This document shows, in pieces, positions 13,030-15,952 of a DNA stretch of 33,167 nucleotides. Within the stretch, counting starts at the first letter, position 1; each line of letters begins with the position of its first letter. A model generated the notes under the pieces. It ran no database searches and was not told where the DNA came from. It saw only the letters and a list, made by a program, of their open reading frames with translations. The stretch is from sequence record SRR2962707_1034; one strand, written 5' to 3'. The position numbers and the translations under genes were made by a program.

Positions 13030-13084
13030 AATGGCCGGTTCGAGCCCAAAGCATCGATGCTGCAAGGCGCATGGATGGCCGCTT
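13030..13084 (+). repeat. Degenerate dispersed repeat, copy B
   Basis: AATGGCCGGTTCGAGCCCAAAGCATCGATGCTGCAAGGCGCATGGATGGCCGCTT. Direct repeats ATGGCCGGTT and ATGGCCGCTT lie 44 nt apart. It resembles a repeat I recall beside accessory genes in Rhodobacteraceae. Confidence 0.6.
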
Positions 13085-13156
13085 TTTCACGAAGAACAGC
13101 ACTAAAAATTGTTGGAATAGCTTACCTAGGACTGCCTCCAATTGACTCCACTTTCA

Positions 13157-13690
13157 CTACGAACCTTGCTCACAAAACCTCAGACGATTTCCAAACGGAT
13201 CATGAACTTGCATTTGCAACCCCCACGGAAGCTTTTCCAAAGCTGGATGATTGAAGGAATACTCTCGATCAGACAGCTCACGGTGTAAGGCACGCAGGTT
13301 CGTGGTAGGAATAAACGCATTAGAGCCGGGGCTGGCATCATTGTGATGTTCCGAGAGATGAAGCTGTAATCCGTCACGTTGTACGGCCATGTAAAGCGGT
13401 AAGTCAGCTGTGTGCCGATGCTCGAACGCAACTTTGAAACCAAGAAAATCACAGTAAAATTCTCGGGCTTTCGCCTCGTCGAAGAAACGTAAAATTGGGC
13501 TGCATCCTGTAAATTCAATGTTTTCAGGTGCCGCGTTGGTCAGAGTTGCCGTTGCAGTGTTCCAATCGGAAAAGCCGAGGCTTTTTGCGATAAGTTCAAG
13601 AGCTTTAGCATGCGGAATATCGCTACCTTCAGCGGCGAGTGCGTCGCGCAATTTTTTGGCCATAGATTTGGCCTGATCTGGACTGAACAT
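13157..13690 (-). CDS. Glyoxalase/bleomycin-resistance (VOC) protein with an N-terminal Glyoxalase_8-type helical domain
   Basis: N-terminus AKSMAKKLRDAL...HAKALELIAKSLGFSDWNT. VOC part PILRFFDEAKAREFYCDFLGF, LHLSEH and PWG..MQVHDPFGNRLRFCE. RBS GGAG. Confidence 0.92.
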   Translation of the reverse strand: MFSPDQAKSMAKKLRDALAAEGSDIPHAKALELIAKSLGFSDWNTATATLTNAAPENIEFTGCSPILRFFDEAKAREFYCDFLGFKVAFEHRHTADLPLYMAVQRDGLQLHLSEHHNDASPGSNAFIPTTNLRALHRELSDREYSFNHPALEKLPWGLQMQVHDPFGNRLRFCEQGS

Positions 13691-13830
13691 TTATGTCTCC
13701 ATACCAGCGAAACATCAGCGGCGTGCGCGTTACCGACCGAACGCTGGTCGGGAGTGTTAGATAATTCAAAGTGTCTTTCACCGTTCCATAAGGATGCGCA
13801 CGGCGGGTAGCACGAGACCTTGGTCCACAA
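13691..13830 (-). ncRNA. Candidate structured cis-regulatory 5' leader RNA
   Basis: About 135 nt between a TTGACG -35-like hexamer (13854-13849) and the ATG. It contains several complementary pairs, listed in the findings. Confidence 0.55.
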
Positions 13831-13932
13831 TCTGCAGTTTTAGGTATTCGTCAAGAAGGATTTGTCTAGGCCAGAGTATTTCGTCGATATCTGACTATCG
13901 TCTCTTAAGCAGACACATGAAGTAAATTGCCA

Positions 13933-13990
13933 AACGGCAGCAAAGTCCCGCACAGCAGCCATCTACCCGTTGCGCAGGGAAGGGTTGCTT
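13933..13990 (+). repeat. Degenerate dispersed repeat, copy C
   Basis: AACGGCAGCAAAGTCCCGCACAGCAGCCAT...GCGCAGGGAAGGGTTGCTT. Two AANGNNNGC units about 47 nt apart, in the same orientation as copies A and B. Confidence 0.55.
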
Positions 13991-14169
13991 CACACGACAC
14001 CCAAGTCGAATGCCTTTGTTGATGTGCTCGGGCACCGGATTCTTAGCTATCTGCCGACGGGCGTTGCGGTTTGGCGGCGTGGGTTCGCGTCAATCCAATG
14101 ATTGTGGCGCGACACGTGAAAGATGTTACCCGATCGTCTGCGACATATTGGTTATCGCATCCTTCCGAC

Positions 14170-14198
14170 TTGTACCCCCCATGGGAGCAATCTATCCT
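14170..14198 (+). promoter_or_regulatory. Sigma70-type promoter giving a probably leaderless transcript
   Basis: TTGTAC (14170-14175), 17-nt spacer, TATCCT (14193-14198). ATG 14206 lies 7 nt further on, with no SD sequence. Confidence 0.6.
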
Positions 14199-14205
14199 GC
14201 TTTGC

Positions 14206-14604
14206 ATGAATTCTCGTGGGTCTCCTACCTTGCGCGCGTTGCTGTTTCGCGGATTTCTTCTGTTGTCGCTCTTTTTGTCGGGAATTGTTCCCGCTGGAAT
14301 GATGCGGCAGGCGGACGACGGCGGTATGCGGCTTGTGCTTTGTACCGGCGAAGGCATCCAAGAGGTCTGGTTGACGCCAGACGGGGAAACCCGGCCAGTT
14401 AAACCTGCCGACACAAATGACGCCGCACACAAGCAACACTGCATTCAGGTAAACCTCGCTTTCGGCGAGGTTCAGCCGCAGAATGTGGCCGGGTTGTTGC
14501 AGGTCGCGCAGCCCGTCGAATTCACGACAAGCACACATCAAACTCTTAAACGCCTGAATGCGACGACGGCGGGCGAGCCGCGTGCGCCGCCAGTTCTGCT
14601 GTAA
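14206..14604 (+). CDS. DUF2946-like exported or membrane-anchored protein ending in a RAPP arrest-type motif
   Basis: Hydrophobic N-terminus, PAGMM...LVLCTGEG, HKQHC and C-terminal PRAPPVLL (132 aa from ATG 14206). Confidence 0.82.
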   Translation: MNSRGSPTLRALLFRGFLLLSLFLSGIVPAGMMRQADDGGMRLVLCTGEGIQEVWLTPDGETRPVKPADTNDAAHKQHCIQVNLAFGEVQPQNVAGLLQVAQPVEFTTSTHQTLKRLNATTAGEPRAPPVLL

Positions 14605-14635
14605 CCAAAGGGACGTCTGCGACGTCTGGAGAGCA

Positions 14636-14666
14636 AACGACCGTCGATGAGACGGTGTGTTTTGTT
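14636..14666 (+). terminator. Terminator/attenuator-like hairpin between the RAPP ORF and the ABC operon
   Basis: ACCGTC-GATGA-GACGGT followed by GTGTTTTGTT. Confidence 0.5.
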
Positions 14667-14851
14667 ACAGCTGCCAATCAAAAACCTACCAGCCACCTGA
14701 ACTGCGCCAAAACCCCCTGTTGGGGGCAGCGCGGGATGGGGTGTGCTGCACGGCATGGGCCATTTGTATCCAGACATCACGGCAGGCGTTCTGACGCCCT
14801 CAGGGCGCAGGATTGCGCCGCCTCTAACCTACAAAATCTGGAAAAATAGTA

Positions 14852-15952
14852 ATGTCTAATACACTTAAGTCGGTCATGGCCGCAGGCCTTTTGGCAACAA
14901 TCGGGTCTACAGCCGGTGCTGAAATCACCATCACAGATCTGCGTGACCGCACCGTAACACTTGAAGAACCGGCACAACGGGTCATGCTCGGTTTCTACTT
15001 TCAAGACTTCCTTGCCATCGCCGGAGAAGGCGCGATTGATCGCATTGTTGGCCTGTCGCGCGGCCCTTGGGCTGAATGGAGACCGGGGCAATGGGAAGTC
15101 TACACGCAAGCCTTCCCGCAGTTGGCAACACTCCCTGATGTGGGCGACACAGGAAGCTCGACCTTCTCTATCGAAGCTGCAATTGCCACCCAGCCTGATC
15201 TTATCGTTCTAGCCGCATGGCAGTATGATGCGCTTGGTGAAAGTGCCGAACAGTTCGCGGCGGCGGATATTCCTGTGCTGGTTCTTGATTACAATGCGCA
15301 GACGCTGGAAAAACACCTCGCTTCTACCCGTGCCCTTGGGGCGGCAATGGGCGCGGATAACCGTGCTGAACAAATCGCGACCTTCTATGAGGAAATGCTG
15401 GCCGACACCGCAAGCCGCGTCGCAGCCTCAACCGGCACGCCGAAAAAGGTTTATGTCGAACTTGCCCAGAAGGGCCCTGACGAAGTGGGCAATTCCTATT
15501 CCGGCGGTATGTGGGGCGGCATCATTGACGGTCTCGGTGGGCAAAATATCGCGAATGGCCAAGTCGAAAATTGGGGGCCGCTGGCACCGGAATATGTGTT
15601 GGCGCAACAACCCGAGGTCATCCTGCTCGCGGGGTCGGAATGGCTTGACCGTCCTGCTGCGGTCCCGCTGGGTTTTGCGCAGAATGCCGATCTGGCAAAG
15701 GAACGTATGCGTGCCTATCTTGGTCGCTCCGGTTGGTCGGAACTTCCTGCCGCGCAAGACGGTCAGCTTTACGGGATTTACCATGGCGGTACCCGTTCGG
15801 TGTCCGATTTCGCCTATTTCCGCTTTTTGGGCAAAGTACTGCACCCCGAAGCCTTCGCCGATGTTGAGCCGCAGGCCGAACTTGCAAAGTTCTACGCTGA
15901 CTGGCTGCCGGTCAAACTTGACGGCACATTCATGATCCAAGCGGATGAGTGA
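14852..15952 (+). CDS. ABC transporter substrate-binding protein, Fe-siderophore/cobalamin (class III, TroA-like) type
   Basis: Signal peptide (AGA|E), ITDLRDRTVTLEEPAQRV, FSIEAAIATQPDLIV, EYVLAQQPEVI, WSELPAAQDGQLY, KVLHPEAF. Confidence 0.92.
   Translation: MSNTLKSVMAAGLLATIGSTAGAEITITDLRDRTVTLEEPAQRVMLGFYFQDFLAIAGEGAIDRIVGLSRGPWAEWRPGQWEVYTQAFPQLATLPDVGDTGSSTFSIEAAIATQPDLIVLAAWQYDALGESAEQFAAADIPVLVLDYNAQTLEKHLASTRALGAAMGADNRAEQIATFYEEMLADTASRVAASTGTPKKVYVELAQKGPDEVGNSYSGGMWGGIIDGLGGQNIANGQVENWGPLAPEYVLAQQPEVILLAGSEWLDRPAAVPLGFAQNADLAKERMRAYLGRSGWSELPAAQDGQLYGIYHGGTRSVSDFAYFRFLGKVLHPEAFADVEPQAELAKFYADWLPVKLDGTFMIQADE

Follow-up and report, generated by a model that had tools for sequence, protein, structure and literature searches.

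The 33,167-nucleotide (nt) stretch of DNA from sequence record SRR2962707_1034, hereafter called the window, carries on its minus strand a gene for a protein of 177 residues (13690-13157) and, directly 5' of it, a leader of 133 nt. This leader is almost certainly a genuine structured, cis-acting RNA, with a pseudoknotted fold maintained by compensating changes among its homologs. It belongs to the first ~55 residues of the encoded protein, i.e., the N-terminal part of the Pfam family PF20066 (Glyoxalase_8), and not to the glyoxalase fold that follows them. The leader most likely controls the initiation of translation. We give a probability of roughly 45% to autogenous control, with the N-terminal domain itself as the effector.

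Covariation and fold of the leader

The window sequence alone folds no better than chance. Its minimum free energy (MFE) is -50.4 kcal/mol compared with -46.26 ± 3.58 kcal/mol for shuffled sequences (z = -1.16), and 29 of 200 shuffles reach an equal or lower MFE. The leader was therefore analyzed by comparison with homologous leaders. The first comparison used the 130 nt located 5' of ~40 homologous genes from Rhodobacterales, sphingomonads, Pseudomonas, Methylobacterium, Rhizobiales, an actinomycete and a Bdellovibrionaceae metagenome-assembled genome, and these upstream regions share an evident conserved, compensating pattern. Two alignments were generated, one of 38 leaders made with MAFFT and the other a re-alignment of 54 leaders from four phyla guided by a covariance model called R1. 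R1 contains the nested helices only, and the pseudoknot helix P2 was left out of it.

In the MAFFT alignment, 90.3% of the cells pair, as against 29 to 40% with slid partners, none of 500 shuffles matches this value, and 22 of 27 pairs show changes on both sides. In the alignment of 54 leaders, which leans towards the R1 model, 94.2% of the cells pair compared with 30 to 40% with slid partners; both sides change in 23 of 30 pairs, with 247 cells altered on both sides. The window leader scores 90.8 bits against R1 (E ~1e-20, a rough value like all R1 E values because the calibration was shortened). The antisense strand scores at most 19.4 bits in every locus, and together with the many G-U pairs this assigns the RNA to the minus strand. 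The conserved covarying structure upstream of homologs that the preliminary description had proposed to look for is thus present. Its elements in the window are as follows, from 5' to 3' of the RNA.

13692-13824, minus strand: whole leader RNA motif, 133 nt (R1 match, model positions 1-137 of 137)
13809-13813, minus strand: 5' strand of helix P1, GUGCU, partner of AGACAC at 13771-13776
13802-13808, minus strand: junction ACC-C-GCC (family consensus GCC.GCC), with C, C, G and C invariant in 38 sequences
13796-13801, minus strand: 5' strand of the pseudoknot helix P2, GUGCGC, to which C13802 adds a seventh pair in the window
13785-13795, minus strand: hairpin P3, (A)UCC-UUAU-GGA, 88.6% paired, changes on both sides in 4/4 pairs
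13777-13782, minus strand: conserved GGUGAA; five bases (G, G, T, A and A) do not vary among 38 sequences, and G occupies the fourth position in at least 90%
13771-13776, minus strand: 3' strand of P1, AGACAC with one bulged A, as read from the window sequence
13751-13754, minus strand: CUCC, an anti-Shine-Dalgarno stretch directly 5' of P4, which pairs with GGAG at 13697-13700 in the MFE structure of the window
13742-13748, minus strand: 5' strand of helix P4, (A)CCAGCG, from covariation
13717-13737, minus strand: hairpin P5, from covariation, with stem CGG (13733-13735) and CCG (13719-13721) and a loop containing the conserved CAAYGCGMGC
13723-13728, minus strand: 3' strand of P2, GCGCAC, inside the P5 hairpin loop, from covariation and RNAalifold
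13703-13709, minus strand: 3' strand of P4, CGCUGG(U), from covariation
13697-13700, minus strand: Shine-Dalgarno sequence GGAG, 3 nt after P4

The leader thus consists of a 5' domain, made of P1, a GAA bulge, a putative short helix P1b and the P3 hairpin and carrying the GCC.GCC and GGUGAA elements, and of a long 3' hairpin formed by P4 and P5. The 5' domain docks onto the loop of that hairpin through the 6-bp P2. Among the 54 leaders P1 is paired in 90.7% of cells with both-side changes in all six of its pairs, P4 in 96.0% (6/6 pairs), and P5 in 92.0% with both-side changes in three of five pairs, as when CGG/CCG becomes CAG/CUG or UGG/CCA. P1b would join the ACC of the junction to GGU at 13780-13782; this pairing may exist, being possible in 98.1% of cells, but the sequences are nearly invariant and vary too little for covariation to prove it. 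In all, 15 columns are invariant among the 38 sequences, and many unpaired nucleotides do not vary across phyla. Covarying helices and invariant junction nucleotides, the conserved traits of aptamers, are therefore both found in this RNA.

P2 is paired in 99.4% of the cells of the 54 leaders and shows both-side changes in four of its six pairs, although it lies outside the alignment model; its third pair occurs as UA, GC and CG. RNAalifold recovers P2 as well as P3 from the plain MAFFT alignment. P1 closes the loop that holds the 5' strand of P2, and the 3' strand of P2 occupies the hairpin loop of P5, so that P2 crosses P1, P4 and P5 and the fold is a pseudoknot.

Read base by base, every string quoted in the preliminary description occurs where it had been placed. 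Its long-range stem CGUGCGC/GCGCACG is P2 and its UCC-UUAU-GGA hairpin is P3. The pairing of ACCAGCG with CGCUGGU is also correct and corresponds to P4, but this is the conserved helix itself and not the alternative one for which it had been taken. Three other proposed pairings find no such support. GUCUC with GAGAC at the ribosome-binding site (RBS) pairs in only 47.8% of cells and without covariation, and GUG-AAAGA-CAC in 41.4%, its CAC being instead the partner of GUG 13813-13811 in P1. CCGACC/GGUCGG pairs in 69.2%, mainly through the conserved CCG and CGG; its pairing is not maintained when P5 undergoes compensatory changes, and it is incompatible with P4 and P5, both of which covary. Taken jointly, these three pair in 55.5% of cells compared with a shuffle mean of 54.5%, a value equaled by 61 of 500 shuffles. 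The switch-like layout drawn around the RBS thus loses its proposed competitors, CCGACC/GGUCGG and GUCUC/GAGAC, neither of which covaries. No conserved alternative helix was found by eye, and the P1-P4 linker is variable in both length and sequence. In each clade some segment could compete with P4, but these segments occupy non-homologous positions, and a conserved switch helix was accordingly discarded. P1, P5, the crossing of P2, and the possible pairing of CUCC (13754-13751) with the GGAG of the RBS had been overlooked.

The leader and the N-terminal part of PF20066

The window protein matches PF20066 with its residues 5 to 58 on profile positions 9 to 62 of 143 (57.6 bits against a curated cutoff of 23.7; E = 1.9e-15), that is, with the N-terminal part of the family only. 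Its remainder matches PF19581 (Glyoxalase_7) over residues 56 to 175 with 149.8 bits (E = 5.6e-44), above the cutoff.

13517-13690, minus strand: region coding for the N-terminal domain (residues 1-58; N-terminal part of PF20066)
13157-13525, minus strand: region coding for the C-terminal Glyoxalase_7 (bleomycin-binding-like) domain, PF19581, with the stop codon

We searched for the RNA in 75 loci (loci and genomes are designated below by our L and G numbers) that contain relatives of the 177-residue protein. It is present in 47 of them at E ≤ 1.6e-15 and in L067 at E = 1.6e-4. The protein match begins at query residues 1 to 8 in all but one of these 48 RNA-bearing loci, the exception being the Caulobacter locus L054. 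The 27 loci devoid of the RNA comprise 25 glyoxalase genes that have no N-terminal part, one locus cut by a contig end (L036) and one in which the N-terminal part is degenerate (L040).

The same association was found in genome samples. Among 151 alphaproteobacterial genomes, the RNA is present in 15 and PF20066 in 15, and all 15 places with the N-terminal part of PF20066 are the 15 strong RNA places; genome G140 contains only the C-terminal part of PF20066 and has no RNA. A match in G147 (27.4 bits, E = 8.8e-4) is followed by an open reading frame (ORF) with no N-domain; it was taken as a chance match and kept out of the counts. In 151 genomes of Actinomycetes, all three places with the N-terminal part have the RNA, and a fourth RNA precedes a gene remnant of 30 residues. 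The 401 Pseudomonadota genomes contain 51 PF20066 places, of which 49 have the N-terminal part and 42 of those 49 have the RNA directly upstream. The other seven are L126, a gene truncated at its 5' end; L130, with an intact N-domain; two divergent copies, L158 and L159; and L160 to L162, sub-threshold fusions to DUF2087. In 101 genomes of Caulobacteraceae, 12 of 13 RNA places lie 5' of an N-domain ORF, and four other genomes scanned with R1 have one RNA place each. The RNA also occurs in a Bdellovibrionaceae metagenome-assembled genome. Most genomes have a single copy. Scans with the RNA model or PF20066 covered ~800 genomes, and in none of them does a strong RNA match precede an unrelated intact gene. 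Thus the leader is tied to the ~55 N-terminal residues of these proteins, and promoter, leader and domain move as one block, consistent with the earlier proposal that leader and N-terminal domain travel together.

PF20066 was detected in all 56 downstream proteins scanned against Pfam; L113, which looks frameshifted, was left out of that scan. Many of them carry the full PF20066, including its C-terminal part. Their C-terminal domains are Glyoxalase_7 (14 proteins), LON_substr_bdg (6), zf-C4_ClpX (3), DUF3471 (2), Clp_N (1) and DUF6225 (1), in addition to DUF402. A profile search returned 3,172 proteins at E ≤ 0.001 among 8,000 candidates scored and added fusions to KOW and SRPBCC, known at the protein level alone. 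At least eight unrelated domains, presumably binding modules, are thus found fused to the N-domain (bleomycin-binding-like, Lon-N, ClpX zinc finger, Clp_N, SRPBCC, KOW, DUF3471 and DUF402), bearing out the earlier statement that a domain of ~50 residues is joined to many unrelated C-terminal domains. Residues K8, E32, W43 and N44 are invariant in 50 N-domain sequences.

Some loci depart from this pattern. The Caulobacter gene (L054, identical to L164; 1350-1833) has an intact leader (105 bits), and its protein starts with MPTI directly followed by Glyoxalase_7, as if the N-domain had been cleanly deleted; no other of the 13 RNA places in Caulobacteraceae shows this. In the three Haematobacter loci L040, L043 and L049 (~1400-1560), a leader-less glyoxalase gene lies directly 3' of an mraY-like gene. 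There the N-terminal part is degenerate (L040, with neither K8 nor DWN) or out of frame (L043 and L049), and the C-domain is kept. Genome G710 has five leaders, each followed by its own N-domain ORF.

Other rearranged copies were observed. At L111:1501-1740 the leader precedes a 30-residue remnant in which the initial residues run straight into the end of the glyoxalase domain. The gene at L126:1170-1500 lacks its 5' end and leader, and the upstream sequence may read as an integrase gene on the opposite strand. In G470 (L134 and G470:C1:3306327-3306533) the PF20066 gene is in two pieces 2.4 kb apart. Four of the five G710 leaders lie within 22 kb (G710:C5:843000-873000; L177-L178), and the genes behind them are two of the Lon-N form, one of the Clp_N form and a truncated one. 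A truncated N-domain ORF of 30 residues, L174, is found just 5' of an ORF of the beta-lactamase family with DUF3471. The 26-kb G710 region with the four leaders encodes a gamma-glutamyltranspeptidase, an IS30-like transposase, a beta-lactamase-family protein with DUF3471, an MFS transporter and a helicase, and no functional theme was found among its genes. The DUF2087 proteins of L160 (1-400), L161 (1166-1565, minus strand) and L162 (1163-1562, minus strand) begin with a distant, sub-threshold N-domain-like sequence (PF20066 E ~3e-4) and are devoid of the R1 motif. Their upstream regions have the words GCTAAACCTG and CGACAAGGGC in common, plus GGGTCCGCAGTTCACCCAG in two of them, and may represent a second leader type for a sister family.

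Probable translational control and its possible effector

The 3' end of P4 lies 11 to 28 nt from the start codon in 53 of 54 leaders, L090 being the exception, and on this basis we consider control of translation initiation most likely. A consensus scan of the leader revealed no terminator-like site or processing signal between leader and gene; the absence of a following terminator likewise points to control at translation. In this model the folded leader would hinder binding of the 30S subunit. As for the start of transcription, the consensus GTTGACA, with T, T and C conserved in at least 90% of sequences, occurs at a fixed distance of ~33 to 36 nt upstream of P1 in 32 aligned loci, and this -35-like element at constant spacing suggests that transcription may begin just 5' of P1. 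In the window it corresponds to the following feature.

13849-13854, minus strand: -35-like hexamer TTGACG of the presumed promoter (family consensus)

Metatranscriptome contigs, all with small word shares, were the only expression data retrieved. Five contig pieces, from relatives 85 to 95% alike, cover parts of 13403-13909, although such contigs show no start, strand or level of transcription. One piece extends 28 letters past 13840, and those letters are unlike the window. By eye, genes whose products start with MRDFRDAK (L044-L046, L085, L094 and others) have codons, AUGCGCGAUUUUCGCGA, that would allow a hairpin at the start codon, CGCGA-UUU-UCGCG.

We favor autogenous repression, in which free N-domain protein would bind its own leader, stabilize the pseudoknotted fold and thereby repress its own translation. 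Three observations argue for it, namely, that no strong RNA match precedes an unrelated intact gene, that each of the five G710 leaders keeps its own N-domain ORF, and that in the three RNA-less Haematobacter loci the N-terminal part is degenerate or frameshifted and the C-domain is intact. The leader also has the arrangement of an autogenous one, as it precedes the gene of its presumed binder and co-occurs with it. The C-domains are mostly predicted binding modules (bleomycin-binding-like, the substrate-recognition domains of Lon, ClpX and Clp, and SRPBCC). More speculatively, the cassette may tune synthesis to demand if protein engaged with its target no longer represses. That promoter, leader and the 55-residue domain form a portable autoregulatory cassette, in which nascent or free protein would silence its own mRNA unless the C-domain is occupied by its target, is a doubtful extension of this model.

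Several results weigh against autogenous repression. AlphaFold2 predicts three helices in the N-domain (residues 4-20, 27-37 and 43-52; mean predicted local distance difference test score, 85.9), a modeled fold that is not recognizably RNA binding. Foldseek returned no match of this model to the PDB at E ≤ 0.001, and the best VIA-align hit (3fyb_B, DUF1244; Z = 5.1, root mean square deviation 2.3, 50 aligned residues) is within the noise for small helical bundles. No PDB sequence matches the N-domain, and a protein-atlas lookup gave PF20066 clusters only, with scores below 0.8. In the window N-domain, acidic residues are about as numerous as basic ones. The Caulobacter gene retains its leader without the N-domain, and L130 has an intact N-domain without the RNA. 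Strict linkage of one RNA to one protein family is also known for some riboswitches, and the mere adjacency of promoter, leader and the first ~170 coding bases would keep them together in domain shuffling. Sequestration of the Shine-Dalgarno (SD) sequence by the flank of P4 has modest support across the family. Pairing between the SD region and the 24 nt preceding P4 has a mean z of -1.12 relative to shuffled flanks, and z is negative in 45 of 53 leaders and below -1.64 in 18 of 53. Finally, the consensus scan called no sigma-70-like promoter at the leader, where the -10 element is weak.

Alternatively, the leader might be a riboswitch, in which a small molecule or ion lodged in a pocket formed by GCC.GCC, GGUGAA and P2 would gate the RBS, the N-domain being merely adjacent. 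The unpaired nucleotides that are constant across phyla (15 columns of the 38-leader alignment do not vary) would fit such a pocket, and the pseudoknot adjoins the SD as in the SAM-II and preQ1-II types; the Caulobacter leader at 105 bits with no N-domain behind it, and an N-domain without a recognizable RNA-binding fold, also point in that direction. However, the genes under the leader have no common pathway, transporter or enzyme and share only the N-domain, attached to at least eight C-domains. The lack of strong matches before unrelated intact genes in ~800 genomes and the decay of the N-domain where the RNA is lost are likewise hard to reconcile with a free-standing sensor, and the Caulobacter case is one of 13 RNA places in that family. 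We therefore regard a riboswitch as unlikely. Recognition of the leader as a cis element by another factor (temperature, a small RNA, or a shared RNA-binding protein or RNase) leaves the N-domain linkage unexplained, and although the SD sequence is situated at the foot of a helix, several C-domains derive from heat shock proteases (Lon-N, ClpX zinc finger and Clp_N) and the single copy in most genomes would suit a host factor, we find it improbable. Known thermometers such as ROSE and fourU are simple hairpins with little sequence conservation, unlike this five-helix covarying pseudoknot with invariant loops, and no Rfam family of thermometers or small-RNA targets matches.

The co-occurrence data that argue for autogenous repression would equally suit a working ribonucleoprotein, in which the leader, perhaps cut off, serves as scaffold, chaperone or localization signal for the N-domain proteins, and so would the shift of promoter, leader and domain as a single block. 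The fixed short distance to the start codon nevertheless indicates control of initiation rather than a free RNA, and no terminator or processing signal separates leader from gene, which makes this explanation slightly less probable still. That the pairings arose by chance in a GC-rich spacer, or that the element is an operator acting as DNA, deserves hardly any credence. The unremarkable single-sequence z score fits it, but 23 of 30 pairs covary over 54 leaders from four phyla, the many G-U pairs would be C-A mismatches on the opposite strand, and one strand only matches the model.

Known systems, gene neighborhood, and significance

Consistent with the earlier suggestion of an undescribed structured leader, the whole window has no match in Rfam 15 at gathering thresholds. 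At E ≤ 10, region 13400-15000 gives six chance-level matches, none within 13692-13824, and 12 diverse homologous loci at E ≤ 1 give a single match located off the leader. Our full-text literature searches found no description of the motif. The main texts of large motif-discovery papers, to which this search was confined, mention neither glyoxalase nor bleomycin, ClpX or VOC, and matches to "lon" are to unrelated words. Of the upstream words listed for such genes in the preliminary description, GGTGAA is confirmed as invariant save for its fourth base.

The element is a cis-acting leader RNA whose special trait is to travel with a protein domain. The E. coli rpsO mRNA, encoding S15, has an autogenous pseudoknot leader at its RBS. 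It resembles the present system in having a pseudoknotted 5' leader at the RBS of the gene of a presumed binder, with strict RNA-protein linkage; it differs in that there is no sequence or Rfam relation and that the presumed binder here is a ~55-residue domain with varied C-domains, not a ribosomal protein. For a mimicked cellular RNA, the loop word GGCAAYGCGRGC was no commoner than its reversed control in five genomes. In phage T4, free gp32 represses its own gene 32 mRNA via a leader pseudoknot and is titrated off by its real target. The idea of autorepression by free protein is the same, although the titration step here is pure inference, and protein, RNA and host are different. SAM-II, preQ1-II and guanidine-III are pseudoknot riboswitches that occlude the SD sequence. 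They share with our leader a compact conserved pseudoknot near the SD and the lack of a terminator, and their control is translational, as we presume for the leader, whereas the leader has no Rfam match, is larger (~135 nt, five helices), and precedes genes linked by a domain and not by metabolism. Weinberg and colleagues reportedly named orphan motifs in 2017 after the adjacent domain, e.g., the DUF3800 motifs. Such RNA classes are likewise defined by a neighboring encoded domain, but here only the first ~55 residues are linked to the RNA, in at least eight domain architectures.

A possibly related description is found in bioRxiv 10.64898/2026.10.21.760802, which in the excerpt consulted presents cluster #630,527 as a covarying motif immediately 5' of genes encoding glyoxalase or members of two further enzyme families, a "common 5' leader." Like ours, it is a covarying leader upstream of glyoxalase genes. 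As far as this excerpt goes, and comparing by description only, the cluster also lies near flavin-dependent monooxygenase and NmrA-like genes, neither of which is found among our 56 Pfam-scanned proteins.

The C-domain of the window protein has as its nearest solved relatives the zorbamycin- and bleomycin-binding proteins (5cj3_A, E = 5.8e-8, residues 64-174); 5cj3_A, 4iag_A and 1jie_A match with E values of 5.8e-8 to 4.7e-6 over residues 58 to 174. By similarity, it is thus a member of the bleomycin-binding-like VOC fold. The neighboring genes encode an AhpC/TSA peroxiredoxin, a DUF2946 protein and a periplasmic binding protein. A spacer of ~1 kb (13860-14850) separates the presumed leader promoter from the divergent periplasmic-binding-protein gene (14852-15952). 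It contains an ORF (14071-14604) with a weak match to DUF2946 (E = 5.3e-5), and nothing else was recognized in it. Upstream of the periplasmic-binding-protein gene there was no Rfam match, e.g., no cobalamin riboswitch.

The closest public record, L001, labeled as a Sulfitobacter isolate, is ~97% identical over 13030-15190. It differs from the window at 57 of ~2,160 positions, with no difference in the 534-nt coding sequence and three in the 133 nt of the leader (13756, 13695 and 13693), all outside helices. Most differences fall in the upstream spacer (13860-14800).

The RNA class is present in about one-tenth of the sampled Pseudomonadota genomes (PF20066 in 42 of 401, RNA in 15 of 151 Alphaproteobacteria). 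Unusually, it is linked to a protein domain and not to a pathway, which raises the question of whether a small domain and its leader can act as a transferable feedback module. The leader provides a first functional handle on PF20066, which has more than 3,000 detected members and on which our literature search retrieved no publications. As the family includes stand-alone Lon-N, Clp_N and ClpX zinc finger proteins, the finding may also bear on the control of proteolysis. If the proposed cassette is real, the synthesis of each "sponge" or adaptor protein would be matched to demand in the cell, and the leader and N-domain together would constitute a modular RNA-protein feedback device of general scope and of a type so far undescribed.

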